Assembly (NCBI RefSeq): GCF_000523275.1
Contig: NZ_ATHQ01000001.1
Location: forward strand, 1,021,289-1,061,288
Source: Lebetimonas sp. JH292
Lineage (GTDB): Bacteria > Campylobacterota > Campylobacteria > Campylobacterales > Nautiliaceae
Direction: 5' to 3'
Length of the DNA: 40,000 nucleotides
A model generated the notes under the pieces. That model searched no databases. It had not been told where the DNA came from and was given only the letters and a program-made list of their open reading frames with translations. Shown piece by piece: positions 5,146 through 21,846 of the stretch. Positions within the stretch are counted from its first letter, which is position 1. Each line of letters opens with the position of its first letter. The translations under genes were made by a program, and so were the position numbers.

Positions 5146-5244
5146 GGAGGGGATGTGATCCTGGTGGACACCCCGGGCTTCAAACCCGGTGGGGCGGCAG
5201 GTGACTGTTTGCCCGGAAGGTTCGATTCCTTCCCCCTTCCGCCA
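5146..5244 (+). tRNA. selC: tRNA-Sec (anticodon UCA)
   Basis: 99 nt, GGAGGGGA...CCCCTTCC-G-CCA. Extended acceptor stem, anticodon stem CCGGG/CCCGG around the loop CUUCAAA (UCA), a very long variable arm (GGGCGGCAG-GTGA-CTGTTTGCCC), T-arm GGAAGG-TTCGATT-CCTTCC, and an encoded CCA. It lies next to selA/selB. Confidence 0.9.
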
Positions 5245-5315: not shown

Positions 5316-6182
5316 TTATTTGTGAAAAGTTTTAATTGCTTTTTCTTTGAACTCTTCGATTTTTTGAAGAAGTTTTTTAAATATATTTTCTGTTTTACTG
5401 CCGTTTTTAATCTCTTTTTCAAGCTGTGTAATTTGTTCTTTTAACATTTTGTATGTTGTATCGCTTGTGCTTGTATATCCTAAAATTTCAGCTAAAGATA
5501 TCTGTTTTTTTGCTTCATCTAAATATTTTAAAGCCTGGTTTTTGTCTTTTTTAACACTTTCACTGGCATTTTTAACAAGGGCTTGAGCTTTGATAAGCGG
5601 GATAGGAATAACGGTATCTGTTTCTACCAATGTTGAAAGCGCCATTGACAAAACATCTTTTGCTTCTTTGGCTTTTCCTTCATTTATATATTTTAACGCC
5701 AAATTAAGAGCCGCCGGATATGTTGCAATAGGCAAATTGATTGTTTTGATCACAATTTCGCTTCTCAGAGAATTTAATACTTCCCTTGCCTGAGGTAATT
5801 TATTTTCTGCTACAAGTATTTTTACTTCATTTACAAGTTTTTTTACGTCTTTTACATCCCCTTGATATTGATATGCGTTAATTTGAACATCAACAGGTAA
5901 AAGATAAGGTGTATTAGGTCTATTTAATAAATCGCTAAGTTCCCCAATAGCTTTTTTTATTGAGTCTTTTGCTTTTTTAGTATTTTTTCCGCTTATATAT
6001 ATTAATGTATCCTGGGTATATTGGATAGCTTTTACCGCTTCATTTGCAAGTTCAGTGTTTTGGGCTTTTTTTTCCGCTTTGATTACGGCTTTTTTACTCA
6101 CCTGAGCGGTTTTTGCATCTGCGGCTAAACTAGATGATACCAAAATGGAAGCCAATACCACTGATGTTAAAATTCTTTTCAT
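5316..6182 (-). CDS. Secreted all-helical protein, tentatively YfdX-like; function unknown
   Basis: 288 aa with signal peptide MKRILTSVVLASILVSSSLAADA and helical, K/E-rich repeats. The segment NLPIATYPAALNLALKYINEGKAKEAKDVL...TDTVIPIPL recalls YfdX-family proteins; this is from memory and unverified. Confidence 0.6.
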   Translation of the reverse strand: MKRILTSVVLASILVSSSLAADAKTAQVSKKAVIKAEKKAQNTELANEAVKAIQYTQDTLIYISGKNTKKAKDSIKKAIGELSDLLNRPNTPYLLPVDVQINAYQYQGDVKDVKKLVNEVKILVAENKLPQAREVLNSLRSEIVIKTINLPIATYPAALNLALKYINEGKAKEAKDVLSMALSTLVETDTVIPIPLIKAQALVKNASESVKKDKNQALKYLDEAKKQISLAEILGYTSTSDTTYKMLKEQITQLEKEIKNGSKTENIFKKLLQKIEEFKEKAIKTFHK

Positions 6183-6245: not shown

Positions 6246-6554
6246 TTATTTATATTTATTTATATTTTTTAAATACTCGATTATAACTTCTTCGACTGTC
6301 GATTTTTTTTGTTGAGGTATATAAACTTTGAAGTATTTATCATCAATATTTTCACCTGTTATAATATGCTTCATAAAAACGGCTTTTAAAAAATTAATTA
6401 GTTTAGTTTTGTCTTTTGTCTGATATGAAGGTGATTTCATAGAAGAATATTCTTTTGTTTTAGTGTCATAAAGAATTAAATATTTACATTCTTCAAAATG
6501 TGGACAAAATTTTGAAGTCATCCATTCTCCGTCGCTTGTTATAATTATTTTCAT
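6246..6554 (-). CDS. Small NifB/NifX-like (dinitrogenase FeMo-cofactor-binding fold) domain protein, tentative
   Basis: 102 aa. MKIIITSDG...HFEECKYLILYDTKTKE...IITGENID follows the MKIAv.s.G..v..HFG....f.iyD pattern of that family, but the match is weak. Confidence 0.5.
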   Translation of the reverse strand: MKIIITSDGEWMTSKFCPHFEECKYLILYDTKTKEYSSMKSPSYQTKDKTKLINFLKAVFMKHIITGENIDDKYFKVYIPQQKKSTVEEVIIEYLKNINKYK

Positions 6555-6616: not shown

Positions 6617-7966
6617 ATGAATCTGTTTAGACAAATTCCAAAAGTGGATAAACTTTTAAAAAATAAAAATCTTCAAGATATTCCAGAGAATGTTTTGCTT
6701 TATTCCATACATTCAGTTTTGAATGAACTCAGAGAAAAAATAAAAAATAATAAAATAGATAAAATAGATGAAAATAAAATAATAAATGAAATTGAAAAAA
6801 AAGCTTGCGGCATATTAAGCCCTTCTTTAATTAATGTAATTAATGCCACAGGTGTTACAATCCATACAAATCTCGGCAGAAGTTTGATAGATGAAGAGAT
6901 TTTTGATGAAGCAAAGAAAGTCAGTACGCATTACTGTAATTTAGAATATGATTTGGATAAAGGAAAAAGGGGGGACAGGTATCATCACAGTGCGAAACAT
7001 TTGAGTTTTCTTTTTGGGTGTGAAGATGCGTTGGTTGTTAATAATAATGCGGCGGCTGTATTTTTGATTTTAAACACATTTGCAAAAGACAAAGAGGTTA
7101 TAGTGTCAAGAGGCGAACTTGTTGAAATAGGGGGAAGTTTCAGAGTGCCTGAAGTTATGAAAGCAAGCGGTGTAAAACTTGTTGAAGTCGGAACTACAAA
7201 TAAAACAAAACCAAAAGATTATGAAGAGGCAATCAATGAAAATACAGCAATGCTTATGAAAGTTCACAAATCAAATTATACTATTGAAGGGTTTAGTGAA
7301 GAAGTTTATATTGATGAAATTGTCAATCTTTCCCGTAAACATAATCTGCTTGATTATTATGATTTGGGAAGTGCATATATTCCAAAGCTTCCTTACGGAC
7401 TTTCAAACGCTGAGCCTTCAATTAATGATATAATGAAATTTTTACCTTCACTTATTAGTTTTAGCGGTGATAAACTTTTTGGAGGAGTTCAGGCGGGAAT
7501 AATTCTTGGTAAAAAAGAACTTATTAATAAACTTAAAAAAAATCAGATATTAAGGATGTTCAGGGTTGATAAAATTACACTCTCCCTTATTCAGGCAACC
7601 ACTCTTGCATATATTAAAAAAGAATATGAAAAAATTCCAACCCTCAGACAGATTTTTGCATCTATTGATGAACTCAAAAACAGGGCAAAAAAAATACTTA
7701 GCCTAACACCAGCCCTAAGGGCTAATATAAAAGAATCAAAAACATACGTAGGCGGGGGGACTATGCCAAATAAAGCCATTCCTACCGTGGTAATTGAAAT
7801 TGAAGGAAATGCTGTGAATTGGGAGAAAAAATTTAGAGAAAAACTTGTTATCGGTAGAATAGAAAATGAACATTTTGTGCTTGATGTAAGAACAATTCAG
7901 GATGATGAAATAGAAAAACTTGCAAATATAATAAATAAATTAATAAGCTGTGAGGTGAAAAGATGA
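6617..7966 (+). CDS. selA: L-seryl-tRNA(Sec) selenium transferase (selenocysteine synthase)
   Basis: 449 aa. INATGVTIHTNLGRS and the PLP-lysine motif FSGDKLFGGVQAGII match SelA. The stop overlaps the selB start (ATGA). Confidence 0.93.
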   Translation: MNLFRQIPKVDKLLKNKNLQDIPENVLLYSIHSVLNELREKIKNNKIDKIDENKIINEIEKKACGILSPSLINVINATGVTIHTNLGRSLIDEEIFDEAKKVSTHYCNLEYDLDKGKRGDRYHHSAKHLSFLFGCEDALVVNNNAAAVFLILNTFAKDKEVIVSRGELVEIGGSFRVPEVMKASGVKLVEVGTTNKTKPKDYEEAINENTAMLMKVHKSNYTIEGFSEEVYIDEIVNLSRKHNLLDYYDLGSAYIPKLPYGLSNAEPSINDIMKFLPSLISFSGDKLFGGVQAGIILGKKELINKLKKNQILRMFRVDKITLSLIQATTLAYIKKEYEKIPTLRQIFASIDELKNRAKKILSLTPALRANIKESKTYVGGGTMPNKAIPTVVIEIEGNAVNWEKKFREKLVIGRIENEHFVLDVRTIQDDEIEKLANIINKLISCEVKR

Positions 7967-9792
7967 GAAATATTATTATTGGAACCGCAGGGCATGTAGA
8001 CCATGGAAAAACATCTTTGATTGAGGCTATGACCGGGTATAACGGGGACGAGCTTAAAGAAGAAAAAGAGAGAGGAATTACAATCGATTTAAGCTTTACA
8101 AATATGAAAAGAGATGATGTAAATGTGGCATTTATAGACGTTCCGGGGCATGAAAAACTTGTAAAAAATATGATTAGCGGGGCGTTTGGATTTGACGCTA
8201 CGCTTTTTGCAATAGATGCAAACGAAGGTGTTATGCCGCAGACCATAGAGCATTTGGAAGTACTTGATATTTTAAAAGTTAAAAATATCATTGTGGCTTT
8301 GACAAAAATAGATTTGGCAAGTGAAGAAATTATTGAAAAAAGAAAAAAAGAGATAAAAGAATTAATAGCTAAATTTAAGAATTTAAAGCTTCTTGATATT
8401 ATCCCGACTTCCACTAAAATGCCTGAGACTATAGAAAATCTTAAGAATTATCTGTTTAACCTGCCTCCGAGAAATATTACACATTCCAAATTTTTCAGAT
8501 ACTATATAGACAGGGTGTTTTCCCTAAAAGGAATAGGAACTGTTGTAACAGGGACTGTTTTAAGCGGAAAAGTCAGACTTAAAGATAAAGTTTATATTAA
8601 TGAAACGGCTACTGTTACAACGGTTAAAAACCTGCAGGTTCATGGTGAAAATGTTAGTGTTGCCCATACCCATCAAAGACTTGCCATTAATCTCAATATT
8701 TCACACAATGAACTTAAAAAAGGATATTTGTTAAGTACAAAAGGATACTTAAGAGGATTTAAATTAATTGATGTTTATATTTCCCCGGTCGAAGGTAAAG
8801 AAATTAAGCATAATATGGGAGTTTTATTTATAAGCGGTGCAAAAAGAATACCTGCGAAAATTTTGATGTTTGATTCAAATGCAAAAGAAGGTTTTGCAAC
8901 TATGAAGTTGCAGGAAAAAGGATTTTTTGTTTATGAAGATCCGTTTGTGGTGCTTCATAAAGGAAGGGTTATCGGAGGAGGCGAAATTTTAAATCCTATA
9001 AGCGACCCTATTAAAAGAAATAAAAAATTATTGCTGTTAAATGCTTTAAAACAAAGGGATTTCCAAAAAGCATTTTCTATTTTGGTTGAAAATCACAAAA
9101 AAGGTTTCGGACTTCTTCAAAGTTATCAGAGATTTAATTTTTCGCCCGATGAAGCTCTCGGTATTGCAAAAACATTAAAAAATGTCTTTATAGATGAAGA
9201 AAATTATAATATTTTTTCAATGGATGTAAAAAAAGAGATAGAAAATGTGGTAAAAGAAACTTATGAAAAAAACAAATTTGCCTTTCTTTCTCCTGCATCA
9301 CTGAAACTCAGATTAAAATGGGCGAGTGAAAAATTGATTGAAACTGTTTTAAATGAATTTGTGGAAGAAGGATTTTTAATAAAAGAAGGCAATATTTATA
9401 AAAGAAAAGATCTTGGTGAAGTGAATATTGAAAAATCAGTCGAGCACAGGCTTTATTCGCTTTTGGATAATTCTGGATTAACTCCCGAAGCACCTTATAA
9501 TATATACGAAAAATTAAATATTGACAGAAAAGTGGGCGATCAGGCTATGAAGAACCTGACTAAGGCTAAAAAAGTTGTAAGGCTTGCCCATAATTTGTTT
9601 GTAAGTGATAAAAATATAAATTATGCAATGAAAAAAATGCGGGAAATTATGGAGAAAAAAGGATATATTGATATTAAAACATTTAAAGAAGAGATGCCTA
9701 TGAGCAGAAAATATATTGTGGCTTATCTTGATTATTTGGACAATATGGGGGATATTGTTAAAGTAGATAATAAAAGGTATTTGAAGAAATAA
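7963..9792 (+). CDS. selB: Selenocysteine-specific elongation factor SelB
   Basis: 609 aa. GTPase motifs GTAGHVDHGKTSL, DVPGHEKL and TKID, followed by a long C-terminal winged-helix extension typical of bacterial SelB (SECIS binding). Confidence 0.93.
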   Translation: MRNIIIGTAGHVDHGKTSLIEAMTGYNGDELKEEKERGITIDLSFTNMKRDDVNVAFIDVPGHEKLVKNMISGAFGFDATLFAIDANEGVMPQTIEHLEVLDILKVKNIIVALTKIDLASEEIIEKRKKEIKELIAKFKNLKLLDIIPTSTKMPETIENLKNYLFNLPPRNITHSKFFRYYIDRVFSLKGIGTVVTGTVLSGKVRLKDKVYINETATVTTVKNLQVHGENVSVAHTHQRLAINLNISHNELKKGYLLSTKGYLRGFKLIDVYISPVEGKEIKHNMGVLFISGAKRIPAKILMFDSNAKEGFATMKLQEKGFFVYEDPFVVLHKGRVIGGGEILNPISDPIKRNKKLLLLNALKQRDFQKAFSILVENHKKGFGLLQSYQRFNFSPDEALGIAKTLKNVFIDEENYNIFSMDVKKEIENVVKETYEKNKFAFLSPASLKLRLKWASEKLIETVLNEFVEEGFLIKEGNIYKRKDLGEVNIEKSVEHRLYSLLDNSGLTPEAPYNIYEKLNIDRKVGDQAMKNLTKAKKVVRLAHNLFVSDKNINYAMKKMREIMEKKGYIDIKTFKEEMPMSRKYIVAYLDYLDNMGDIVKVDNKRYLKK

Positions 9793-9802
9793 GAAGGAAA
9801 AA

Positions 9803-10846
9803 TTATTTAACAACTAAAGGAAACTCTTTGAATTCCTTAACAGTTGCTATTGCTTTAGCACTCACTCCTTCATTTTCCATTCTTTTTAAAAGTTCATTAA
9901 CTTTTTCCTGAGAGGCGCTGATTAAAAGCCCTCCGCTTGTCTGGGCATCAAATAGTATCATCTGCTCTTCAAAACTGAGTTCTTTTTCAAATTTTACTTT
10001 TCCTTCTAAAAATAGCTGGTTATTGTAACTTCCGGCAGGAATTATTCCCATGGATGCCTGATTAATCGCTTCTTTTAAGAAAGGCACTTTTTCAAATTCT
10101 ATTTCTATAGTGAAATTGTTAGCGCTCATTTCATACAAATGTCCTAAAAGACCAAATCCTGTAACATCTGTCATTGCATTTACACCGATTTCCCTTGCGA
10201 TAAGACTTGGTTTGTAATTTAATGTCCTTAAAATTTCAGCTACTTCACTGGCTACTGTTTTATCTATCAAATCCGCTTTTATTGCTGTTGTTAAAATTCC
10301 CATTCCAAGAGGTTTTGTTAAAACAATTACATCATCTTTTTTTAATGTATTGTTTCTTATAATTTTTTGAGGATGAATTGTACCTGTAACGCTAAGTCCG
10401 TAAATCATTTCCGGAGTTTCTATTGTATGTCCTCCGGCTAATACACCGCCGCACTCTTTTATTTTATTTTCACCGCCTTTTAAAATTTCATTTAATACAT
10501 CTTTTCCGTGATGACAGTTATCAAATCCGACTAAATTAAGGGCAGTTTTAACATCTCCTCCCATTGCAAACACATCGCTTAGGGAATTTGCAGCTGCAAT
10601 TTGTCCGTAAATAAACGGGTCGTCAACAACAGGTGTAATAAAATCGGCTGTTTGTACAAGTGCTATATCATCTGTTAATTTATAAACACTTGCATCCTCA
10701 TTTCCTTCAAATCCGACTATTAAATTTTCGTTTTTTCCATCAAGAACTTTTGTAGCTTTGTTTAGCTCCTCCGGAGCCAATTTCCCTGCTCAGCCGGCTG
10801 CTCTTACATATTTTGTAAGTTTGGCGTTGTTATTTAATTTAAGCAT
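9803..10846 (-). CDS. selD: Selenide, water dikinase (selenophosphate synthetase), selenocysteine-containing form
   Basis: The ORF track starts at 10780. Reading upstream in frame gives ATG (10846-10844) [31 protein letters not shown], with TGA at 10792-10790 as codon 19. This aligns with the E. coli SelD active-site loop (..YSHGAGCGCKI..). An RBS (AAAGGA) lies 6 nt before this ATG. The rest of the protein is the PurM-like SelD fold ([23 protein letters not shown]). Confidence 0.9.
10762..10780 (-). promoter_or_regulatory. SECIS-like hairpin downstream of the selD UGA
   Basis: On the minus strand, 10 nt after the UGA: TTGGCTCC-GGA-GGAGCTAA. That is 8 bp including one G-U pair, or 7 bp with the loop CGGAG. 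Confidence 0.55.
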
Positions 10847-10855
10847 ATATATCCT

Positions 10856-11212
10856 TTAAAATGTTATAACTTTGTCTGCTTCTTCAACCCAGGCAGCCAA
10901 GTCTTTCATTGTAGCTTTGATTTCAGGTGCAAAATATGGCTCGTTTTTAAATAATCCGCATCTTGCCTGACAAGTGCCGCATACTTTTAATTTTATACCG
11001 TTTTGATACATTTCTTTAAGCATTGCAACCAAGTCGTTGTCATAATTTTCAGGTTTTTTATTGCAATCCCTTGCCATATCCACGGCATCATTCATTAAAA
11101 AAATTCTTACATCGTTTCCTTTTTCAAACAAAACTTTTGCAAGTCTAAGTCCGTTCCAAGCTACATCGCTTCCGTCATATGGTTCGTGATTGAATATAAT
11201 TAAAATTTTCAT
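10856..11212 (-). CDS. DsrE/DsrF-like (YchN-fold) sulfur/selenium relay family protein
   Basis: 118 aa. MKILIIFNHEPYDGSDVAWNGLRLA... and the conserved Cys region KLKVCGTCQARCG are typical of the DsrE/YchN fold. It ends 9 nt upstream of the selD ATG. Confidence 0.75.
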   Translation of the reverse strand: MKILIIFNHEPYDGSDVAWNGLRLAKVLFEKGNDVRIFLMNDAVDMARDCNKKPENYDNDLVAMLKEMYQNGIKLKVCGTCQARCGLFKNEPYFAPEIKATMKDLAAWVEEADKVITF

Positions 11213-11490
11213 TTAACCTCCTTAATTTCTTTTATTTTTCCTTTATAACCTACGATTTCTATTGCGTGTAACAGTTTTTGAGGTGTTGTTTTTGTATCGT
11301 CAAAAATTACCGTTGCTATTTTAGTGTTTAGTAGTACTTTTGCTTTTATAACGCCCGGTGTCATTTTTAAACTTCTTTTTACAGCCATTGTACATAATGG
11401 ACAAGTCATTCCACTTACTTTAATAATAGCCACTTTTTCAGCTCCAAAAAGTGAACAAAATAATACTAAATTTAAAATAATTTTTTTCAT
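11209..11490 (-). CDS. Periplasmic heavy-metal-associated (HMA) domain protein, MerP-like
   Basis: 93 aa. Signal peptide MKKIILNLVLFCSLFGA followed by an HMA fold with GMTCPLC. There is a 4-nt overlap (ATGA) with the downstream DsrE-like gene. Confidence 0.8.
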   Translation of the reverse strand: MKKIILNLVLFCSLFGAEKVAIIKVSGMTCPLCTMAVKRSLKMTPGVIKAKVLLNTKIATVIFDDTKTTPQKLLHAIEIVGYKGKIKEIKEVK

Positions 11491-12075
11491 TTACTCTCCC
11501 ATAAACAGATATTGAGCCCAAAAAGGGTAAGTTAGCATAATTAATACAAAAACAGTACCAATACTTAAATATTTTACATAATTTTTGCAAATACTGCCAC
11601 TGCAAACCGGTCTTTTTCTAAGTTTAAAGAAATAATTTATCCACAAATAAACAATAATTATAACAGCTGCAATTGTAAAATAAATTCTATATGGTGCGAA
11701 AATATGTAAAAATGAAAGACTTCCGACACTTACTCCAAAAATCAAAAAAAGCAAAGGCCCTAAACAGCATGTGCTTGCCAAAATTGCAGTTATTGCCGCA
11801 CCTGCTATTAAAGCCCAAAAAGATTTTGATTTTTTACTTTCATTTTGAATTTCGCAACTGTAACCTTTTATAGCATTTATTATTGTATCTTTTCCTTCTT
11901 TTTTTTCATTAAAATAAATTCCTTGCGTTTGCAAAAATCTTTTTACATTCTGAATAGAAGAGAAGGAATTAAGTTTTATTTCAATAATTCCTTCTTCTAT
12001 TTCTTCTAATGCCTCTTTTGTTTTAAGAACAGGTTCTGGACAAGCTAAATTTCTTAAATCCAGCTTTTTTACCAT
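11491..12075 (-). CDS. Fusion protein: N-terminal TusA/SirA-like domain + C-terminal MerT-like three-helix membrane domain
   Basis: 194 aa. Residues 1-80 form a TusA fold with LRNLACPEPVLKTKEAL (CPxP motif). Residues 85-194 contain TM1 with the vicinal Cys pair ILASTCCLGPLLFLIFG (MerT signature), TM2, the loop RKRPVCSGSICKNY (second Cys pair) and TM3. Confidence 0.75.
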   Translation of the reverse strand: MVKKLDLRNLACPEPVLKTKEALEEIEEGIIEIKLNSFSSIQNVKRFLQTQGIYFNEKKEGKDTIINAIKGYSCEIQNESKKSKSFWALIAGAAITAILASTCCLGPLLFLIFGVSVGSLSFLHIFAPYRIYFTIAAVIIIVYLWINYFFKLRKRPVCSGSICKNYVKYLSIGTVFVLIMLTYPFWAQYLFMGE

Positions 12076-13199
12076 TAAAACAGTTCCTGAGAAGTAATTT
12101 TATATTCAAAACTTTTTGGAACATAATAATTTAACACATCATCATTTACCTCGGCATACGGATAACCAAACATATTTAGAGGGTATTGAACAGGTTTTGG
12201 ATAAAGTATGAAATCTCTTGCATGGTTAAATCCAACCCAGTTCATTTCCCATGAATGCAGATATTTTTTTACTAATTTTTGAACTTTTGGGTGGTTGTAA
12301 GGATATTTTTCAACTAATTCAAGTTTTGTAACATCAGCAGGGTCTGTAGGTATCCATCCAGCCCCTGGAATATAATATTCAGCCCTGCAGTGTTGCCAAG
12401 TGGTAATATTTGCAAAACCTTTACTATCACTTTTTCCAAGAGCTTTGTCAAAATGGCTTTTTCCAAGTCTGATACCAAAAACCTCTCTTGCAGGAATACC
12501 TGCCGCTCTTGTTAGGGCGGTAAAAAGTGAGCTTAAATCTGTACATTTTCCTCCAAACCATCCGTTTTTATAAATATATTCAGCTGTCGGTTTTTTTTGC
12601 TCTTGCATCATTTTGCCAACTTCACCTTTTCCGCATCCAATAGTTTTTGGATTTCTGAATGTATGGGCTGTACACCATAAATAAATTGCTTTTACTTTTT
12701 CAAACCTATCTTTTTTACCTTTTGTGATAAGTTCTGCCACTTCTTTTACAATTCCGTCAGTAGGAATATGGGCAGTAGGCTCAAGATATTTTAACACTTC
12801 TTTTGGATATGGCAGATTTTTTTTGCTGGCTTCTTTTATTAGTTCTAATGGAACACTTCTATCTTTTGTTTCAATTTCCATTTCCATTGTCAAAATTTTA
12901 GGCATAGCTGATTTTTCCCAATATGCATAAAAAGTATTTGCATCATATTCATTTTTATTGTTAATATCATAATCGTTATAATTTCCGCCAAATCTTAAAA
13001 ATTTAACTTTTTGATATGGTGCATTATATGGAAGCGGGTTCCATAATCTTGCAGGAAAACCTGGCTCGTCGTATTTGATGTTGAAATAATATTCAACCTT
13101 GAATCTTCTATAGCTTTCATCTTTTGCACTTACAATACCAGGTATAGAAACTGCCATACCTAAGGCTGCACCTGTTTTTAAAAACTCTCTTCTTTCCAT
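12075..13199 (-). CDS. TAT-exported transglutaminase-like cysteine protease-fold protein
   Basis: 374 aa. Twin-arginine signal MERREFLKTGAALGMAVSIPGIVSA. Transglutaminase-core triad context: GGKCTDLSSLFTALTRAAGIPAREVFG (Cys), WQHCRAEYYIPGAGW (His), IPTDPAD (Asp). Confidence 0.8.
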   Translation of the reverse strand: MERREFLKTGAALGMAVSIPGIVSAKDESYRRFKVEYYFNIKYDEPGFPARLWNPLPYNAPYQKVKFLRFGGNYNDYDINNKNEYDANTFYAYWEKSAMPKILTMEMEIETKDRSVPLELIKEASKKNLPYPKEVLKYLEPTAHIPTDGIVKEVAELITKGKKDRFEKVKAIYLWCTAHTFRNPKTIGCGKGEVGKMMQEQKKPTAEYIYKNGWFGGKCTDLSSLFTALTRAAGIPAREVFGIRLGKSHFDKALGKSDSKGFANITTWQHCRAEYYIPGAGWIPTDPADVTKLELVEKYPYNHPKVQKLVKKYLHSWEMNWVGFNHARDFILYPKPVQYPLNMFGYPYAEVNDDVLNYYVPKSFEYKITSQELF

Positions 13200-13204
13200 T
13201 ATTT
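13175..13204 (-). repeat. Copy 1 of a 30-nt exact direct repeat (AAATAATGGAAAGAAGAGAGTTTTTAAAAA) covering the RBS-proximal region and MERREFLK
   Basis: Identical by direct comparison to 15946-15975. It spans the start codon and twin-arginine motif of the transglutaminase-like gene. Confidence 0.9.
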
Positions 13205-13211
13205 ACTCCTT

Positions 13212-15970
13212 TTAAATTTTTTGTATTTTTATTTTTGTTGAACTAAAATCTGGTATACCTCCGATCGGATCAACCAAAGGTAAATCATAAAATTTTTTGT
13301 CTAATTTACTAATTTTATTTACACAAATTCCCATTGCTCTTTTTTTATCAGGAATTACGTAATTATTTTTAGTAACAAATAAGCACAGCATCCTTTGGCA
13401 ACAAAACATTTACTATTTTTACTTTGTCATAGTCTTTTAATCCTAATTTTTTAGCATCAATTGGGTTTATTTTTAATGTAATATCTGGTTCGTAATAAAG
13501 GGCTTTATCTAAACATATAGTTCTTGATTGTGTATGTAATGCCGATTTGTATGATGTTAAATAGAAATTTTTTTCTCCTATTATGGTATTTGTAGAAGTT
13601 GCAAGTTTTTCATTATATATATGTATTTTTTCAAAACCAAATATATAATTGTCATTTTCATCAAACCAATTGTTCTCTTTAAATACACCTCCTTTTGCTA
13701 AAACATTACATACTTTTTCCCATTCTTCTGATTGTAAAATATGTTTGTGTTTTGTAACAATATAATTTTTTTCTACATAATCAATAGTTTTTTTATCAGC
13801 CTTAGATATTTTTGCATTGTGTGCAAGATTGTAAATACCTCTTAGATAATAATCTTCTTGGGTATTTAAAGAAAATTTATTGTTTATAGCTTTTTCTCCA
13901 TAACCAGGTAATTTTAATTTTTTAGAAAGGTCAATCAAAAATTTTTCTAAATTAATATTATTTTTTGTGAGAGGCTCTATTATAGGTGTTCTAACACCAG
14001 TAAAATGACCTCCAGGAGCATGTGGATTTAAAAAGCCATAATGTCCTGTCTTAATCTGCATAGATATTTGTTTCATTAATAGTTGTGTCTATTGATACAA
14101 ACAGAGGAACTTTTGTTTTATTTTTTAACGTAGATTCAAATCTGTATCCTCCAGGCAGGATATTTTTGGTCTATACCGCTCATTGCGGCTACACTTAATC
14201 CTCCTTTAGTAATAAATATCCTCCTTTTCTGTTTACATTTCCAATTAATGCATTTAACATAGAAATTGCATAACTTGCATAAGTTCCGTTTATATAGTTT
14301 CCTCCTCCATGATACGCAAAAGCTGCACTGTGTGGGGCAATGTTTTTTTTATTAACTCCGCATTCTTTAGCATAATCATCAATTGAATGTTCAAAAACAG
14401 AGTTTTTCATTATTTTAAATGCTGTAACTACTTTATTTTACCTTCATATTCTAATATTGTATTTTTAGAATAAGTTTTCCAATTTTCCATAAAATCATCA
14501 TTTTTTAGTCCAATATCTGACCCTCTTAAAAATTTTCCATAATTTTTGTTTTCTTTATCAATTATTACTAAATGTGTAGCATTTGAAAATGTTGATCTTT
14601 TTTTATTTTTAGCTTCTTCTAAGTTTTTTTCTAAGAGAATTGCTTTTGGAGCTTTTGGATCAATTAATACGATTTTTAAATCATTATTTGCAGTTCTTTT
14701 TGCAATTATACTTCCTGATGTATTTACTCCGAATAAATATTAGCACCAAATATTAACATATATTTACAATTTTGAAAATCTGCCTTCATTTCAGCTTCTT
14801 TTCCGTCTGTAAAAGCGTAATTACCCATTCTAAAGCCGATACCACATATATCAGTATGTGCAATATAATTTTTTGAACCGATAGAATTATAAACCCATCT
14901 TTTTATAAAATCTACTCTTCCTCCTTGGGAACGTCCTGTAAACCATACAAATTGGTTTCTTTTAGAACCTAATTCTTCAGCTTCTTTTCAGATAAAATAT
15001 CTTTTATGCCTGGATAATATGTTTCATCCCCTAAATGTTTAAAATTTTTACCTCCGAAAGCTATTTCATTTATTAAAGTATCCCAATCTATAGGTTCGAA
15101 TTTTCCGCTTCCTCTTTCACCGTTTTTAAAGGTTTTGTTATTCTGTAAGGATTATAAACATATTCATTATTCATTTGCGGTTTTGCACACGTTGATGCTG
15201 AATATTTAAAACTTTTTTCTATATCTGTTGAATAAGAAATTTGGTTGAAATCTCTATTATATGGGTGATAAGGATTTCCATCAACTTGTACACATTTGTT
15301 GTCTTTAACGGCTATTCTTAAACCGCATCTTGCATTACAAGCTAAACAGACGGTATTTACTATTTTATCTGCTTTTGGTTTTTTTGTTTCATAAAATCCA
15401 TATTTTTCTTTATAAATAGGTGTAACATCAGTAAAAGTCGCTAAATGGTGATAAAGTGCATATTTTAAAGTTGGATTGTTTTCTAGAAGTTCTTTTAATT
15501 GTCCTTTAGGATTTTTAAGATTTCCATAAACTAAAGCCCCGCCTGGGCAAATACTGACACATCTTGGAATGTCTCCTTGAATAATTCTGTCAAAACACAT
15601 ATCGCATTTTTTTGCTTTTTTATCAAAAACTATAGCGTCAAAAGGACAGGCTTTAGCACAACTTTGTTTATTTTCGGCACAATTGATATCACATTTGTCT
15701 TCATTTATTAATATAACTCCATCTTTTGCACAAATTGCAATATATTCAAACGCTCGGCACAAAAGTTTTTATTTTGAAAAACACTACATCATAAGGAAGA
15801 TTTTTTTCAAGTTGACATGCTGCCATACAGCTTTTGCAGTCTAAACATCTGCTTTGGTCATATATTAAAACAGGCATAAATTCATTTTCTTCAGCATTAG
15901 CAAATTTAAATGTTGTTGTGCTGATTAAAACACTAAATGCTCCAATTTTTAAAAACTCTCTTCTTTCCAT
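13212..15970 (-). pseudogene. Decayed gene for a TAT-signal 4Fe-4S ferredoxin fused to a Mo/W-bisPGD (DMSO-reductase-superfamily, Psr/Phs/Ttr-like) oxidoreductase
   Basis: Stitching the minus-strand frames gives one continuous homolog: MERREFLK (TAT), CLDCKSCMAAC, CAKACP, CDMC...CVSICP (ferredoxin), CLACNARCG (MopB N-terminal cluster), ITKPLK/GERGSGKFEPIDWDTLINEIA, FVWFTGRSQGG, YIAHTDICGIGF (Cys ligand region), MLIFGANIY, IVLIDP, VVTAFKIMKNSVFEHSIDDYAKECGVNKKNI, GNVNRKGG, VPLFVSIDTTINETNIYAD, KLGLKDYDKVKIVN, DPIGGIPDFSSTKIKIQKI. At least 8-9 frame breaks or stops interrupt it, near 15746-15781, 15121-15133, 14981-14992, 14722-14740, 14428-14442, 14192-14210, 14158-14170, 14048-14063 and 13369-13409, mostly in A/T runs. 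Confidence 0.8.
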
Positions 15971-15975
15971 TATTT
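15946..15975 (-). repeat. Copy 2 of the 30-nt exact direct repeat (start region of the Mo-oxidoreductase relic)
   Basis: Identical to 13175-13204. Confidence 0.9.
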
Positions 15976-15978
15976 TCC

Positions 15979-16569
15979 TTATAAGCTAATAGTATTTTTG
16001 TGAAGTAGAAAGTCCATTGTGTCGTATGCGTTTCCTATTTCTCCGACTTTTAGCTCTTCTGGAGGAATTTTGTAAAAATTCATACAAACGCCGCATGAAT
16101 AAATTTTTACGCCTCTTTTTTCAAATTCTTTTAAAATTTCTATTGTTTTTTCATTTTTTGTTGTTAAAAATACACCTCTGTTTACACATACAATAATTTC
16201 AGGAAGTTTTTTAAATTCAAGTGTTGTTTTTAAAAATCCTTCTATTAATATGTGTCCAAGCTCGCCTTCTCCAACTTTGTCATCTTTTATAAAAAGCACC
16301 TTATCTAAAAATTTATCATTATCTTCTTCTTTTGGTGCAATACTGCATTCATAACCTTTTACAATCCTGATTATGGTTTCACCATTATCCAGTTTTTCTT
16401 CTTCTGCAACCAGTCCCTGGTTTGCCGCAAATCTTTTAACGTTTTGAACAGATGAAATAGAATTTACCAAAACCTCCAAAATTCCTTCGTCCATCTCTTC
16501 AAGTGCTTTTTTTGTATCAAGCACAGGTTTTGGACATGCCGCATTTCTGCAGTCTATTTTTTTATTCAT
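15979..16569 (-). CDS. yedF: YedF-like selenium-metabolism-associated protein (TusA/SirA-like N-domain + DsrE-like C-domain)
   Basis: 196 aa. The N-terminus CRNAACPKPVLDTKKALEEMDEG (CPxP) is paralogous to the N-domain of 11491..12075. The C-terminal half, with IIVCVNRGVFL and KIYSCGVCMNFY, is DsrE-like. Length and architecture fit the roughly 200-aa YedF family (TIGR03527, recalled from memory). Confidence 0.72.
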   Translation of the reverse strand: MNKKIDCRNAACPKPVLDTKKALEEMDEGILEVLVNSISSVQNVKRFAANQGLVAEEEKLDNGETIIRIVKGYECSIAPKEEDNDKFLDKVLFIKDDKVGEGELGHILIEGFLKTTLEFKKLPEIIVCVNRGVFLTTKNEKTIEILKEFEKRGVKIYSCGVCMNFYKIPPEELKVGEIGNAYDTMDFLLHKNTISL

Positions 16570-17329
16570 TTGTTACTCCTTTTGTTGTTTCGTATCCGGC
16601 AAGAGCCGCTCCGAATGCCCCCATCATCTGAGGATATTCCGGTGTGTATACTTCTTTTTTTAATTTTTTTGAAAGCAATTCCCTAAGAAGTGAATTTTTA
16701 GCTCCTCCCCCGGTAAAAACGATTTTGTCTTCCGGTCTAATGCTTTTGGCCATTCCGGCTAATCTTGATGCTATTGAATCAATAATTCCGTATCCTATAT
16801 TTTCAGGCTTTTCTTTTTTTGCCATAAGAGAAATTACTTCTGATTCGGCAAATACCGCACACATTGAAGATATCTGGATTGTTTTGTCAGCTTTTTTACA
16901 AAAATCTCCAAACTCATCAAGCGGAATCTGGAGTTTTACAGCCGCCATTTCTATAAATTTTCCGGTTCCGGCCGCACATTTGTCGTTCATTTTGAAATTA
17001 TCAAAATTTCCGCCTTCGGTTACTTTTATTACCTTGCTGTCCTGTCCTCCTAAATCAATAACAGTTCTTACATCCGGAAAGAAAAAATAAGCCCCTTTTG
17101 CATGGGCTTTTATTTCGCTGATTACAGGAACGTCAAACGCTTCTTGCATCATATATCTTCCATAACCTGTTGCAACCAGGGTTTCAATAGGTTTATCTTT
17201 TAAATATTCTTTTACCTGTTCGTCGGGATTTATAACGGTATCTAATACTTTAATGTCAATTATGTTTTTATTATCATCAATTCCAACAATTTTTGTATAG
17301 GTTGAGCCTATGTCAACTCCGTAATACAT
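16562..17329 (-). CDS. BcrAD/BadFG-type ATPase: activator of a (R)-2-hydroxyacyl-CoA dehydratase-like or double-cubane reductase
   Basis: 255 aa. ASKHA fold with GVDIGSTYTKIV and DLGGQDSKVI. The two cluster-bridging Cys contexts are MNDKCAAGTGKF and ISSMCAVFAESEV, and FTGGGAKN is present. Confidence 0.85.
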   Translation of the reverse strand: MYYGVDIGSTYTKIVGIDDNKNIIDIKVLDTVINPDEQVKEYLKDKPIETLVATGYGRYMMQEAFDVPVISEIKAHAKGAYFFFPDVRTVIDLGGQDSKVIKVTEGGNFDNFKMNDKCAAGTGKFIEMAAVKLQIPLDEFGDFCKKADKTIQISSMCAVFAESEVISLMAKKEKPENIGYGIIDSIASRLAGMAKSIRPEDKIVFTGGGAKNSLLRELLSKKLKKEVYTPEYPQMMGAFGAALAGYETTKGVTNE

Positions 17330-18642
17330 TAAAATCCTTTAAATTTAACGTTCTTTTTAAATGAAATACTTTCCAAAAACGCTTCAACTCTTGTTTTAAT
17401 CTGACCCATATCTTCCATTGAATAATCAGATTCAATTCTTAAAACAGGAATATTTTCAGCCTGAAGTCTGTCTATTACTCTTTTTGATTCCACGTTGTAT
17501 GTATGACAAAAAGAGAGTGAATAATAAATAATACCGTCAGCTTTTCTTTCTTTATACATTTTGATTATTTTATCTATTCTATCATCATTTGGAGTAAAGC
17601 ATGCACAGTCTATTTTCATATATCTATCAAGCATATTATTCATTAAATCATCAATAGTTTCAGCTCCTTGGGTTTCAATATTGTCTTTATAATATCTGTG
17701 TCCGATACATGCTTCTTCGTTTATTATTACTCCACCGGTTGTTTCAACAATATGATGAAGCTTCCAGTTTGGAGGTGCCATAGGTGTTCCAATTACCATA
17801 ATTCTCGGAGTATCTTTTTTTACAACAGAAACGCATTTTTTAATTCTTTCTTCAAGTTCGTCGCAAAGTTCATTTACTTTTTGTGTAAATCTTTCAGGGT
17901 CGTCATAAAAAGAGATTTGGTTAATTAAAAGTCCGTCTTTTCCGCTGATAGGTACAACATCAGGATACATGCCCCTTAATTTGTCAAGACGCTGCATGGC
18001 TTCTCTTTTTTTGTTTATAATTTCAATTCCCTTTTTAAGCTCTTCAAATGTAAGTTCTTTTCCTATAATTGATTCAATGTGTTTTTTAAAATCATAAACT
18101 TCACTTTTCCAAAGTTCTTTTTCTTTTTCTCTTTTCATTTGAGGAATATGCATTACATGAGTTGGGTGCAATTCGTTTAAAATTTCCCATGTTTTTTTCT
18201 TAGCTTCGCAGCTTGTTTCCCCGTATATAAAATCTGAAGCCTGTGTATACGGACATGTTTTTTGAACTTTAAATCCATACGCAGATTTAATTAAAGGGCA
18301 TATATTTCTTGGCAAATCTCTTTCGGCATCTGCAATAGAAAATTCAGCCCCGCCGCATAATCCGTAACATACTCCATCAGCCCCGACAACAATTTCTTCC
18401 GGGACAAATATACAAAAAGTTCCAACTAAAGGTTTTCCTTCTTTTTTCTTTTCTAAAATTTCTTCTATTCTTTTACCGTGTATTTCACTCATTACATAAT
18501 CAAAATATTCCATTGCTTTTGGTCTGTTTTCCTGCTTTAAAAAAAATTCAGGATATATTTCACCCAGAGCAGCCAAAAGTTCATTGTGTTTTTCTATATC
18601 CATACCAAGTTCTTGATACATAGGTGTGTAATCTTTAGACAT
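17329..18642 (-). CDS. 2-hydroxyacyl-CoA dehydratase (HGD-D) family protein, single-subunit type; candidate double-cubane-cluster reductase
   Basis: 437 aa, Cys-rich ([58 protein letters not shown]). A single HGD-D gene paired with one activator ATPase, rather than an alpha/beta pair, matches the DCCP arrangement. Confidence 0.75.
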
Positions 18643-18795
18643 ACTTATCCTTTTTTAATTTTTTTAATTTTTATTTTTTTAGGATAAGCCTTATCCTTTT
18701 AACAACATTTTATCTTGAAGGTTTTAGAAGTACATCATGAAGCTTTTAGGAGTTTATGCCTCATGTGTTTCCCAGCCTGGGAGCTTAATTAGAGA

Positions 18796-18801
18796 ATTAT
18801 A
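18796..18801 (-). promoter_or_regulatory. Possible -10 box (TATAAT) for the 18642-9803 gene string
   Basis: A minus-strand TATAAT about 150 nt upstream of the ATG at 18642. No -35 element was evaluated, and read-through from the Crp-family gene is equally possible. Confidence 0.3.
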
Positions 18802-18836: not shown

Positions 18837-19478
18837 TTATTGTAAATAATTTTTTAATTTTTTCATATCTATAATGATGTATTTGTCTTTGCCGATTTTT
18901 TTCAAAATTTTTTCTTTTATCAGTTGATTAAAAAATTTGGAAGTAGTCTGTCTTTGCGAACCGATAAAAGTTGCCAAATCTTTTATGCTTAAAGATAAGT
19001 CTATTTCAATACCTTCATCAGTTTTTTTACCGCTTTTTTTTGCAATTTCCAAAAGAAATGAAATTATTCTTCTTTTGCAGTTTTCAAAAACCAAGCCTTT
19101 AATAATATCTTTTTCAACCATCATAATATTTCTGAATGAATTTAATACAGAATTACAAAACATAGGATTATCGAAAACGGCAGGATGTTTTGTAACATCA
19201 AGAGATAAAACAACGGAGTCGCTTAGAAATTCAATTATAGATTCCGGATGCATTACATATATATTATTTTTCGATAAAAAATATAATATAAATTCTTTGT
19301 CTTCATATAAAAAAGAAACTTTTGCTTCACCTTCTTTAAAAATTAACAGTTTTGTTTTTTCTTCAGGATAAAATATTTCCCCTTTTTTAAAATGCATTTT
19401 TACAAATTTTGATAAATCTTCTTTACTCAAAATTTTTTCTATATCAAAACTGTCAATTTTAATTCTGCAAAATTTCAT
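18837..19478 (-). CDS. Crp/Fnr-family transcriptional regulator
   Basis: 213 aa. N-terminal cNMP-binding-like beta-roll and C-terminal HTH (LSIKDLATFIGSQRQTTSKFFNQLIKEKIL). It lacks the N-terminal Cys cluster of true FNR. It is divergent from fdhF. Confidence 0.8.
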   Translation of the reverse strand: MKFCRIKIDSFDIEKILSKEDLSKFVKMHFKKGEIFYPEEKTKLLIFKEGEAKVSFLYEDKEFILYFLSKNNIYVMHPESIIEFLSDSVVLSLDVTKHPAVFDNPMFCNSVLNSFRNIMMVEKDIIKGLVFENCKRRIISFLLEIAKKSGKKTDEGIEIDLSLSIKDLATFIGSQRQTTSKFFNQLIKEKILKKIGKDKYIIIDMKKLKNYLQ

Positions 19479-19614: not shown

Positions 19615-21846
19615 ATGACAAAAGTACAAACCACATGTCCTTATTGTGGGACAGGTTGTAATATAGATTTGATTGTTGAAAACGGAAGAGTCGTTAAAGC
19701 GGAAGGCACTAAAAACCATCCTGTAAATGACGGTGAATTGTGTTTAAAAGGTATGTTTGGATGGGAATATATACATTCTCCAAAAAGACTGACCAAACCT
19801 TTAATCAGAAAAAAATATGGTAAATATTCAAGAGATGGACGTTTGGAAGAATCTTCATGGGAAGAAGCATACGCTCTTGTTGCTTCAAAATTAAAAGAAA
19901 CTGTTGAAAAATATTCATCTGATAGCGTTGTAGGTTTTTCATCAGCAAGATGTACAAATGAAGAAAATTATATTTTTCAAAAATTTATAAGGGCACTTGG
20001 TTCAAATAATGTAGACCACTGTGCTCGTTTTTGACACGGTCCTACAGTAGCCGGTCTGGCTAAAACACTTGGAAGCGGGACTATGACAAACGATTTGGCG
20101 GAATTTGCAACAGATACGGATGTGTTTTTATTAATAGGTACAAATACAAGTGAATGCCATCCTATAATCGCTATGCAGGTTTTAAGAGGCCTTGAGAGAG
20201 GTGCAAAGCTTGTTGTAATTGACATTAAAAAAACAGATATGGCAAAAAAAGCGGATGTATTTATCCAGATACCGAGCGGATATAATATACCTTTAATTAA
20301 TGCAATGATAAATTATATTATTCAAAACAATTTATATGATAAAGAATTTGTTGAGAAATATACAAACGGATTCGAATGGTTAAAAGAAACAGTTAAAGAT
20401 TTTACATTTGAAAAAGTGGAAAAAGAAACAGGTGTGTCAAAAGAACTTTTGATTGAAGCTACTGAATTATATGCAAAAGGTAATCCTTCCGCAATACTTT
20501 ATACAATGGGAATTACCCAGTTTATAGACGGAACATATAATGTAATGGATGTTTCAAACCTTGCAATTGTTACTGGGAATTTAGGTAAAAAAGGAGGAGG
20601 TGTCAATCCCCTAAGAGGCCAAAACAATGTTCAGGGTGCAGGTGATATGGGCGCTCTTCCTGGTGATTTGCCAAATGGAAAAGTGACTGATCCAAAAGCC
20701 CGTGAAAAAGCTGAGGAAATTTGGGGATTTAAAATAAATCCAATTCCAGGCTTAAAACTTTCTCAAGTACCTCATGCAATTGATGAGGGAAAAGTGAAAT
20801 TTTTATATATTTTTGGAGAAAATCCTGTAATGAGCGATCCGTGGACGGAACATTTTATTCACGCTTTGAAAAAAACAGATTTTATAGTTGTTCAGGATAT
20901 TTTTCTTACAGAAACAGCCCAGGAAGCGGATGTTGTATTGCCAAGTGCGTGCTGGGGTGAAAAAGACGGAACATTTAGTAACACTTCAAGAAAAGTTCAA
21001 TTGGTAAGAAAAGCTGTTGAGCCTCCTGCAAATTTAAATCCAGACTGGAAAGTAATCTGTAATGTAGCAAACAGAGTAGGGTTAAAAGGCTTTAATTTCA
21101 ATACGGCTGAGGAAATTTGGAATGAAGTCAGAAAATTAAACCCTTTCAAATTTAAAGGGATTACTTATGAAAGAATGGCTAAATTAAACGGAATAAACTG
21201 GCCTTGTCCTGATGAAGATCATCAGGGAACTCCTTATTTGTATGAAGATAACAAATCTTTTTTACCTGACGGAAAATTCAAACTTGTACCTATTGGTTAT
21301 ACATTAGATAAAAATGAAAGAATTGTTTTAGAAAATAAATTAAGAAAAACTTTTAATATTCCTGATGATTATCCTGTAGGCGTTGGGTGTCCTAGTGAAC
21401 AGCCTACAGAAGAATATCCTTGTATGTACACAACAGGTAGGAAAGTTTATCATTATCATACAGGAACAATGACAAGAAAATGCAAACCTCTTGAAATGGG
21501 TGCAGATATTATGGGACCTGTTATTGAGGTCAGCGAAGATATAGCAAGAGAAAGAAATTTGGAGAATGGATGCTATGCCGTGGTTTATAATAAAAGAGGA
21601 AAGATTGCTGCAAAAGTATTGGTAAATAAAGACTTAAGATACGGAACTATATTTACCACATTTCATTATGCGGAAGCAGACGGAAACGAACTTACCAATG
21701 CAGAGGAATCAGACCCGGTATCAGGAATGCCGCCACTTAAAATGTCAATAGCGGATATTAAAAAAATTTCCGAAGAAGAATTTTTAAAAATAAGAACAGA
21801 AATTCTTAGAGAAATAGAACCTGAAATTATTGAAAGGAGGGGTTAA
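19615..21846 (+). CDS. fdhF: Formate dehydrogenase H-type catalytic subunit (cytoplasmic, Mo/W-bisPGD), selenocysteine-containing
   Basis: The two ORF-track pieces (19615..20034 and 20083..21846) are in the same frame, separated only by TGA at 20032-20034. Read-through gives [30 protein letters not shown], the canonical FDH active-site Sec context. The N-terminus has TCPYCGTGC with no TAT signal. Confidence 0.92.
20035..20075 (+). promoter_or_regulatory. Bacterial SECIS element of fdhF
   Basis: UGA CAC GGU CCU ACA GUA GCC GGU CUG GCU A. The apical hairpin is UAGCC-GGUCU-GGCUA (20048-20062). The loop sequence and spacing closely parallel the E. coli fdhF SECIS (..GUUGCA GGUCU GCAC..). Confidence 0.65.

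Follow-up and report, generated by a model that had tools for sequence, protein, structure and literature searches.

How a cell selects selenium from an excess of sulfur, imports it, and delivers it in reduced form to selenophosphate synthetase (SelD) is an open question, and recent papers state that no organism is known to have a high-affinity or dedicated transporter for selenium (PMC9312934, PMC11097638). The locus described here raises that question. In a 40,000-nucleotide stretch of the genome of Lebetimonas sp. JH292 (contig NZ_ATHQ01000001.1, positions 1,021,289 to 1,061,288; the whole stretch is referred to below as the window), selD closes a row of nine reading frames on the minus strand (9803-18642) that includes thiol carriers, a Mer-like membrane protein, and an ATP-driven reductase. 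We consider it likely that this row is the selenium acquisition and activation operon of Lebetimonas, with eight working genes and one dead accessory gene, transcribed from a promoter and leader at about 18800. The genes are identifiable and tightly coupled, they cluster recurrently with selD, and they share a leader RNA that also precedes selD/selAB and predicted selenium transporters. The selenium reading draws on three independent lines, namely synteny, the shared leader, and published co-occurrence, and as judged from sequence comparisons it is well supported for both functional association and co-regulation.

The features on which the argument turns are, in the direction of transcription, as follows.

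18718-18801, minus strand: promoter -10 box (TATAAT) and structured 5' leader, the leader copy itself at about 18790-18730 (alignments and minimum-free-energy [MFE] folding)
17329-18642, minus strand: double-cubane cluster protein (DCCP), catalytic component of an ATP-driven low-potential reductase (NF040772, 475.9 bits, cut-off 350)
16562-17329, minus strand: reductase/activase of DCCP, a BcrAD/BadFG-type ATPase (PF01869, 181.8 bits; TIGR00241, 248 bits, cut-off 125)
15979-16569, minus strand: YedF, with TusA and DsrE-like domains, of a curated selenium-metabolism family (TIGR03527, 193.1 bits, cut-off 110)
13212-15970, minus strand: pseudogene of a ferredoxin::molybdenum-bis(pyranopterin guanine dinucleotide) oxidoreductase, TtrB::TtrA-like, exported by twin-arginine translocation (TAT) (frame switches and deletions against the orthologue in locus L001)
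12075-13199, minus strand: predicted periplasmic thiol enzyme with a putative TAT signal and a transglutaminase (papain-like) fold, called TGase below (PF01841, 69.6 bits, cut-off 23)
11491-12075, minus strand: TusA::MerT fusion of 194 aa (PF01206, 59.9 bits; PF02411, 47.1 bits)
11209-11490, minus strand: MerP-like HMA protein, predicted to be periplasmic, with a putative signal peptide and the motif GMTCPLC (PF00403, 51.9 bits)
10856-11212, minus strand: small YchN/DsrE-like protein with a CxxC (C78, C81) and C85 (PF02635, 75.2 bits)
9803-10846, minus strand: SelD, with selenocysteine (Sec) at residue 19 (TIGR00476, 335.7 bits, cut-off 125)

The initial annotation of this DNA, made from its letters and open reading frames, had described a string of nine minus-strand genes. 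Its coordinates, translations, and junctions were reproduced exactly, and profile hidden Markov models, the check it had proposed, returned all of its domain calls. Nine frames do stand in a row; eight of them are intact genes, and the remaining one is a pseudogene. The DCCP and activase genes overlap by 1 nt and those for the activase and YedF by 8 nt; gaps of 8 and 12 nt separate YedF from the molybdoenzyme pseudogene and the latter from TGase. TGase overlaps the fusion gene by 1 nt, the fusion and MerP-like genes abut, the MerP-like and DsrE-like genes overlap by 4 nt, and a gap of 9 nt precedes selD. Such close packing of co-directional genes is ordinary operon architecture and no statistical anomaly; the unusual part is the gene content.

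The window DCCP aligns over its full length with the solved DCCP of Carboxydothermus hydrogenoformans (6ENO/7YYL; 507 bits), with all of the cluster cysteines matched (C77, C96, C115, C145, C312, C346, and C379). It is a clear orthologue of that protein and is predicted to have an [8Fe-9S] cluster and ATP-dependent reduction, and the activase gene adjoins that for DCCP in every relative examined. YedF carries Cys12 in a CPKP (CPxP) motif and CGVC at residues 159 to 162. The nearest solved relative of the DsrE-like protein is E. coli YchN (1JX7, E 1.5e-12); against the TusD equivalog model it scored 32 bits, under the cut-off of 89.25, and is not classed as TusD. SelD, which is the only selenoprotein of the operon, has an in-frame TGA at codon 19 (10792-10790) within the context RAAG-U-AGK of its read-through translation, in the N-terminal glycine-rich loop. 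An 8-bp hairpin lies 12 nt past this UGA; its fold z-score is non-significant, and we use it descriptively.

The molybdoenzyme frame had been called decayed, and it is in fact a true pseudogene. Comparison with an intact 1,143-aa orthologue from a metagenome-assembled genome (MAG) of the Nautiliaceae (L001:4174-7605; L numbers denote the loci compared) revealed nine or more frame switches and three deletions within the gene. The intact orthologue itself scored 479.5 bits against TtrA, far under the cut-off of 1,750, and is not assignable as a tetrathionate reductase equivalog. The gene is absent from Lebetimonas natsushimae (L088), Caminibacter mediatlanticus (L089), and L002, and its absence from the first two marks it as an accessory rather than a step of a relay. 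The suggestion that a molybdoenzyme serves as the periplasmic selenium-reducing step was therefore ruled out for this organism, where the gene is dead, as it is missing from sister species as well.

Do the remaining genes belong together, and do they belong with selD? A one-genome-per-species scan, with an alignment of the fusion protein as the query, returned 63 Campylobacterota loci, which were compared with all window proteins by tblastn. Across about 60 of them, TGase, MerT (with or without TusA), and MerP form an invariant co-directional three-gene cassette with TGase first. The loci are labelled Nautiliaceae, Nitratifractor, Sulfurovaceae/Sulfurovum, Sulfurimonas, Sulfurospirillum, and Arcobacter-type. 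MerT is fused to TusA in Nautiliaceae, Nitratifractor, and many Sulfurospirillum/Campylobacterales MAGs, and is unfused in Sulfurimonas- and Sulfurovum-labelled loci, some Sulfurospirillum loci, and two Arcobacter-type genomes reached through DCCP. selD was seen in 24 of the 63 loci. Where both flanks extended for at least 1.5 kb (29 loci), it lay within 1.5 kb of the cassette in 11; chance adjacency is about 0.2% for one single-copy gene in a genome of about 2 Mb. It may stand downstream and co-directional, upstream and divergent, or downstream and convergent. The gene set gathers round selD in at least five arrangements, together with the Sec machinery or the selenouridine enzyme, and the following were seen beside that of the window.

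Lebetimonas natsushimae: DCCP-activase-YedF-TGase-TusA::MerT-MerP-DsrE-SelD, without the molybdoenzyme gene
Caminibacter mediatlanticus: Crp, then selA-selB-YedF-TGase-TusA::MerT-MerP-DsrE-SelD, without DCCP at the locus
Caminibacter profundus: DCCP-activase-YedF-DsrE-SelD-selA-selB, without the Mer-like cassette
Arcobacter nitrofigilis and strain DY0563: selB-selA-selD divergent from DCCP-activase, then TGase-MerT-MerP
Nitratifractor salsuginis: selU and selD divergent from the cassette

In A. nitrofigilis an extra, stand-alone DsrE protein resembling the C-terminal part of YedF is encoded between DCCP-activase and TGase-MerT-MerP. The link to selenium that had been proposed for these genes is thus borne out by recurrent synteny with selD in several arrangements, and also by the shared leader described below. 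The proposal of a single machine of nine parts did not survive the comparison; the system is modular, C. profundus having no Mer-like cassette and C. mediatlanticus no DCCP at the locus.

Two other observations were made in these neighborhoods. A HAD-like protein of about 155 aa (soluble P-type-ATPase-like, with weak Hydrolase_3/HAD-IC matches) is encoded directly beside selD in 13 loci (L003:3278-3745, L005:12121-12588, L008:12021-12491, L009:5308-5778, L010:2179-2646, and eight more) and nowhere in the window; it may be another selenium-associated gene. Outside the phylum, Desulfurobacterium thermolithotrophum has a DCCP 81% identical to the window protein (L081:8001-9457). The gene is broken into two frames, IS605, resolvase, and integrase genes flank it, and no activase gene was seen; it appears to have been acquired horizontally not long ago and to be decaying now, so that its neighborhood is uninformative. 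A 75%-identical DCCP is named in Thermotomaculum (Acidobacteriota).

What ties the modules to one another, beyond proximity, is a leader RNA. The 194-nt spacer upstream of the window DCCP gene contains a G+C-rich patch within an A+T-rich genome, and when the regions upstream of DCCP at eight loci were aligned, a conserved leader of about 95 nt with four helices emerged. P1 is the closing helix (GCUGU/ACAGC). P2 is a 5-bp hairpin with a conserved AGGYU loop, whose stem sequences change completely and yet pair (GUCUA, GCUCA, ACCCA, GCCUA, and UCCCA). P3 is built on invariant ACAUGA and CAUG(U)A blocks, and P4 is an inner helix. In the window, P2 occupies 18782-18770 (UCCCA-GGC-UGGGA, in the conserved AGGYU loop context), ACAUGA 18766-18761, and P3, which reads CAUGAGGC...GCUUCAUG, 18765-18736. 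The TATAAT box (18801-18796) lies about 14 nt upstream of P2, which is consistent with a leader near the 5' end of the transcript. This copy is a divergent Nautiliaceae variant with P2 and a long P3; it can be aligned both to the copy in C. profundus (E 8e-5; a member of the training set) and to Nautiliaceae copies upstream of YedF, and independent MFE folding gave its two-hairpin layout in eight of nine relatives' sequences, with compensatory stems. Separately, a perfect hairpin (GGAUAAG-G-CUUAUCC, 18695-18681, minus strand) comes after the leader and before the ribosome-binding site of DCCP. L. natsushimae has this hairpin too; it is followed by an A-rich rather than a U-rich tract and may be part of an expression platform.

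The support for these helices has to be read with the way they were derived in mind: RNAalifold on MAFFT alignments gave P2 only, and the other helices come from a hand-drawn seed structure and covariance-model realignment. In the resulting alignments, both of which were fitted to the model and hence are biased towards its structure, 94% of cells were paired in the training alignment and 84.7% in 22 non-training matches, versus 64.2% when shuffled; compensatory changes were found in 19 of 21 and 20 of 21 pairs, respectively. P2 cells were paired throughout (100%) in both. Sliding the 3' partners by 1 to 3 columns reduced pairing to 19 to 48% (training) and 23 to 47% (non-training), and none of 500 shuffles reached the covariation score of either alignment.

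In 1.14 Mb of loci, the second covariance model of the leader (R2) gave 39 matches at E<=1. Each has the orientation of a start codon downstream of it, almost all within about 40 nt and a few at up to 300 nt. The downstream gene was TGase in 22 cases, DCCP in 8, YedF in 5, selD in 3, and selA in 1; one of the three selD matches is probably an antisense echo. Antisense matches were discounted; the palindromic P2 and ACAUGU give rise to them on top of genuine leaders. When metagenome contigs were scanned for the exact pattern, 40 stretches came back: about 25 have the full leader directly upstream of DCCP, and the rest are chance matches without it. In metagenomes the leader also precedes a protein matching TIGR04553, "putative selenate ABC transporter substrate-binding protein" (360 bits, cut-off 250), a YeeE/YedE-family transporter (L099), selD-selA-selB, a second DCCP copy, and a MetNIQ-like ATP-binding cassette (ABC) system. 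Example copies are L005:8764-8859, L013:6573-6671, L057:8803-8898, L084:7902-7983, L099:4540-4623, and L107:4771-4867. In L117 (6012-11704) and L109 (10-3105), two tandem DCCP genes each have a leader of their own, and a divergent third leader stands ahead of the MetN/MetI/MetQ(NlpA)-like transporter, which may bring an organic selenium (or sulfur) substrate into the regulon.

No Rfam 15 family matched the leader in the window at the gathering threshold, and none matched the window leader or five strong representatives at E<=1-10. Two readings of the element itself, a mini-open reading frame AUG-AAG-UAG and a T-box-like role for the invariant ACAUGA, were dropped as inconsistent across members. 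The leader probably places the modules under selenium-status control, either as a riboswitch or as a SelB-binding element resembling a selenocysteine insertion sequence (SECIS).

Can the cassette proteins be expected to move selenium? In TGase, which is 100% identical to a Lebetimonas sp. JH292 protein, C189, C219, H270, C271, D286, and D289 are invariant among 14 to 20 homologues, and these residues include a Cys-His-Asp triad (C219, H270, and D286/D289). The TAT signal profile PF10518 scored 18.6 bits, under its cut-off of 22.7, and the motif MxRRxFLK is invariant. The AlphaFold2 (AF2) model (pLDDT 80, pTM 0.83) has 3ISR, an uncharacterized structural-genomics putative Cys protease, as its nearest solved fold (E 7e-15), and a sequence search against the PDB found nothing for TGase, so that the fold offers no functional lead. 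The fusion protein, which is 98% identical to Lebetimonas proteins, joins an N-terminal cytoplasmic TusA domain of the YedF type (Cys12) to a three-helix MerT-like membrane domain with a CC pair (103-104) and a loop bearing C158 and C163. Among 15 homologues, C103, C104, and C158 are invariant and C163 is found in at least 90%; the AF2 model shows a TusA fold and three long helices. The fused TusA domain scored best against the YedF model (57.8 bits, versus 15.8 bits for TsuB/YeeD). Against the MerT equivalog model NF010314 the fusion reached 51.3 bits (cut-off 150), and against PF02411 it exceeded the cut-off of 32.9, which places it in the MerT fold and family without making it an equivalog. 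The MerP-like protein, with a hydrophobic signal-like N terminus (residues 4 to 26), likewise scored 61.2 bits against the MerP equivalog TIGR02052 (cut-off 92.55).

Homology to MerT and to MerP/HMA proteins, and the public annotation "mercuric transporter MerT family protein," might suggest that the cargo is a heavy metal (Hg, or Cu/Cd) and that a Mer-type relay serves detoxification or metal delivery in a metal-rich vent habitat. We think this very improbable. Neither the profile-scanned genes of the window nor the recurrent neighbor clusters of the roughly 60 loci include merA, merR, or merB, both proteins fall far under the equivalog cut-offs given above (about 51 versus 150 and 61 versus 92.55), and metal resistance gives no reason for a fused TusA, an invariant TGase partner, or a leader held in common with sel genes.

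If the cargo is selenium, the parts could act as follows. TGase, predicted to be TAT-exported to the periplasm and likely the entry enzyme of the cassette, would take up or free selenium from external species by means of its Cys219-His270-Asp triad together with Cys189 and Cys271. The selenium would travel as a thiol-bound adduct, either a selenotrisulfide or a perselenide, which should be chemically fit for a Mer-style ligand-exchange relay. It would pass from the CxxC of the MerP-like protein to the membrane CC pair of the MerT-like domain, to the cytoplasmic C158/C163 loop, and on to Cys12 of the fused YedF-type TusA domain. In the cytoplasm, YedF and the YchN/DsrE-like protein would hold it and hand it on, and DCCP with its ATP-hydrolyzing reductase would provide very low-potential electrons, freeing selenide for SelD, which would make selenophosphate for Sec and selenouridine synthesis. 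DCCP-activase, TGase-MerT-MerP, and YedF/DsrE are separable modules, bound by their linkage to selD and by the common leader.

The DCCP cluster is not reducible by dithionite or Ti(III) and requires ATP, and its physiological role is unknown (PMC9351452). A cluster that resists these reductants and needs its ATPase would be a reasonable low-potential electron source for the release of selenide, and the position of its gene in a selD operon, behind the leader of a selenium regulon, suggests a selenium-related substrate. The dependency might instead run in reverse, with SelD and the relay supplying selenium to DCCP for a selenium-bridged variant of the [8Fe-9S] cluster or for a selenium-dependent step of its pathway. 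This was a formal possibility in the work of Haft and Gwadz (2022), who found 955 of 970 high-scoring DCCPs in SelD-containing genomes, and DCCP does come first in the operon and has a leader even where it is alone. However, C. mediatlanticus and several MAGs have an operon of the Mer-like cassette, YedF, DsrE, and SelD with no DCCP at the locus, and the protein with which the window DCCP aligns from end to end (507 bits) has a cluster described as sulfur-bridged (PMC9351452). We regard the reversed dependency as quite unlikely and retain DCCP as a presumed supplier of electrons for selenium activation.

Several points weigh against a dedicated selenium system, and some of them speak for sulfur. 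TusA and DsrE are canonical sulfur-relay folds, and the genes could serve the import or trafficking of sulfur (sulfane, persulfide, or thiosulfate), with YedF/DsrE as ordinary sulfur carriers and the proximity of selD incidental or a mark of general chalcogen handling. The hosts are sulfur-metabolizing vent bacteria, as their locus titles indicate, and the YeeE-family protein linked to the leader is slightly closer to TsuA (84.9 bits) than to YedE/FdhT (78.9 bits), both scores being below cut-off. Adjacency to sox genes, which the initial annotation had itself named as a sign against selenium, occurs in six loci (L008:6910-8682, L012:3478-8740, L019:23-3688, L024:134-5378, L027:3531-8761, and L037:3257-8490), where soxA, soxB, a SoxH-like metallohydrolase, a DsrE-like protein, and a cytochrome-c/thioredoxin fusion are encoded immediately upstream of the cassette. 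Moreover, some 60% of the loci with adequate flanks have no selD within 1.5 kb, and DCCP-activase stands alone in Sulfurospirillum arcachonense, Malaciobacter, and one Sulfurospirillaceae MAG; modules that occur without each other are not obligate partners. The evidence is drawn throughout from a single phylum, which makes the loci non-independent. The window leader by itself was non-significant against model R2 (14.7 bits, E 0.5), and scans for promoters and terminators returned the numbers of sites expected from shuffled sequence and are uninformative on internal signals. Finally, the order of the thiol hand-offs from outside to inside is a reasoned hypothesis built on analogy with Mer, and the part of the DCCP reductase in the relay is one that we infer.

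Nevertheless, a sulfur role seems unlikely to us. Adjacency to selD exceeds chance by more than 100-fold, and in several arrangements; a single leader precedes both selD-selA-selB and the TIGR04553 putative selenate-binding protein; the fused TusA domain is of the YedF type; and DCCP is almost confined to SelD-containing genomes. Even beside sox genes, the cassettes of L012, L024, L027, and L037 keep their own leader, placed between the sox genes and TGase, and form units of their own there, and in L008 selD also lies downstream of the cassette. Selenium acquisition and activation is the reading with which we proceed.

How much of this is new? The initial annotation had recognized no described system in the combination. 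That stands for the Mer-like/TGase cassette, on which we found no paper; it does not stand for YedF, which belongs to a curated selenium family, or for the associations of YedF with activase and HGD-D genes and of DCCP with SelD, which had been published. The YedF-SelD linkage was noted by Lin et al. (2015), whose STRING partners of YedF include activase, HGD-D, and transglutaminase-like genes (Table 1, PMC5322559). Haft and Gwadz (2022), in reporting their survey, stated that DCCPs were not known to be tied to selenium. In Methanococcus maripaludis, a TusAD (TusA-TusD) system is induced by selenium starvation (PMC11097638). Our literature search returned no paper linking MerT, MerP, or the TGase cassette to SelD and no description of the leader; so far as that search shows, the Mer-like/TGase cassette and the leader RNA are new.

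The locus provides a testable list of parts for the question posed at the outset: a predicted periplasmic thiol enzyme, a Mer-like relay with a YedF-type TusA, YedF and YchN-like carriers, an ATP-driven reductase, and SelD. The leader, a link between the modules, selD/selAB, and predicted selenium transporters, can serve as a probe for mapping the regulon and seeking its ligand, and several hosts (Arcobacter and Sulfurospirillum) are cultivable, so that the hypotheses are open to direct testing. A bolder proposal, which we offer tentatively and would expect to fail sooner than to hold in all of its parts, is that the cassette is the first dedicated selenium importer, DCCP and its ATPase are the physiological reductase providing selenide to SelD, and the leader is a new selenium-status sensor, either a riboswitch for a selenium metabolite or an element binding SelB/Sec-tRNA(Sec), that defines a Campylobacterota regulon. 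If this is true, DCCP gains its first natural function.

The cluster had been placed between the Sec machinery and Sec-dependent fdhF and hydrogenase genes, and this was confirmed. The flanking features are these.

5146-5240: tRNA-Sec
6617-7966: selA
7963-9792: selB
18837-19478, minus strand: Crp/Fnr-family regulator directly upstream of the operon (HTH_Crp_2, 55 bits)

On the far side of the operon, the Crp/Fnr gene is followed by a Sec-containing fdhF (TGA at 20035) and then by hydrogenase genes. The Crp/Fnr gene is probably a separate transcription unit, and its product may be a regulator, perhaps a dedicated one, of the operon. In C. mediatlanticus a 50%-identical homologue (L089:4131-4772) lies directly upstream of selA-selB-yedF; where the window has Crp/Fnr, L. 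natsushimae and C. profundus have a LysR-type gene and fdhD. The Sec codon of fdhF is followed by a hairpin, UAGCC-GGUCU-GGCUA (codon and hairpin within 20035-20062, plus strand), whose fold z-score is non-significant and which is given as a description; its GGUCU loop resembles both the SECIS loop of E. coli fdhF and the P2 loop of the leader. Between tRNA-Sec and selA are genes for a YfdX-family protein (5316-6182, minus strand) and for a protein of about 100 aa with a weak Nitro_FeMo-Co (dinitrogenase cofactor-binding-like) match (6246-6554, minus strand). The latter is kept beside selD/selA in L. natsushimae (within L088:15690-16946) and C. profundus (L082:12249-12542). A plasmid search with the whole region as the query gave no match.

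Each part of the system can be set beside a known one. The window DCCP is orthologous to C. hydrogenoformans DCCP (DCCP/DCCP-R; 6ENO, 7YYL) and likewise has a BcrAD-type ATPase encoded alongside; no physiological substrate is known for the C. hydrogenoformans protein (PMC9351452), whereas the window DCCP stands within a selD operon. The leader recalls the SECIS-like element in the 5' untranslated region of E. coli selAB, which is bound by SelB in a feedback loop (PMC13449736), in that both place a hairpin near the ribosome-binding site of selenium genes. The AGGYU loop of P2, with G at its second position, fits the bacterial SECIS consensus (PMC13582414), and the leader may bind SelB. Unlike the E. 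coli element, the leader is larger (P1 to P4, about 95 nt), has invariant ACAUGA and CAUGUA blocks, and precedes uptake and reduction genes too. The selenocysteine-assisted organometallic (SAO) locus of anaerobes (Haft and Gwadz, 2022) resembles our operon in its association of DCCPs with a DsrE-like CxxC protein and with selenium use that depends on SelD. SAO is, however, an ABC-transporter and MerB-like system built of selenoproteins, and its defining families (SaoL, SaoP, SaoB, and others) are absent from the operon.

Two transport systems bear on the cassette. In YedE/YedF (FdhT/FdhU, predicted for selenium) and TsuA/TsuB (YeeE/YeeD, for thiosulfate), as presumably here, the transporter passes a chalcogen to a cytoplasmic TusA-like Cys; YedF itself is in the operon, and a YeeE/YedE-family gene is under the same leader in L099. 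The membrane part, which might take the place of YedE in these genomes, differs, being a MerT-like three-helix protein and not Sulf_transp, and the MerP-like and TGase partners are absent from YedE/TsuA. In the Mer system, Hg(II) is passed from a periplasmic CxxC protein to the CC pair of MerT, to the cytoplasmic Cys pair of MerT, and to the N-terminal domain of MerA. The cassette has a presumably periplasmic HMA protein with GMTCxxC, a membrane protein of three helices, the first bearing CC and the second and third joined by a stretch with a cytoplasmic Cys pair, and a cytoplasmic acceptor domain to which that pair would pass the cargo. In contrast to mer, it has no MerA, MerR, or MerB and scores under the equivalog cut-offs; its acceptor is a fused TusA and not the HMA-like NmerA; it has an obligatory transglutaminase-fold partner with a putative TAT signal; and it is tied to selD and to a sel-gene leader, with selenium and not Hg(II) as the presumed cargo. 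By this analogy, the system is Mer-like in its presumed working but is not a mer operon.

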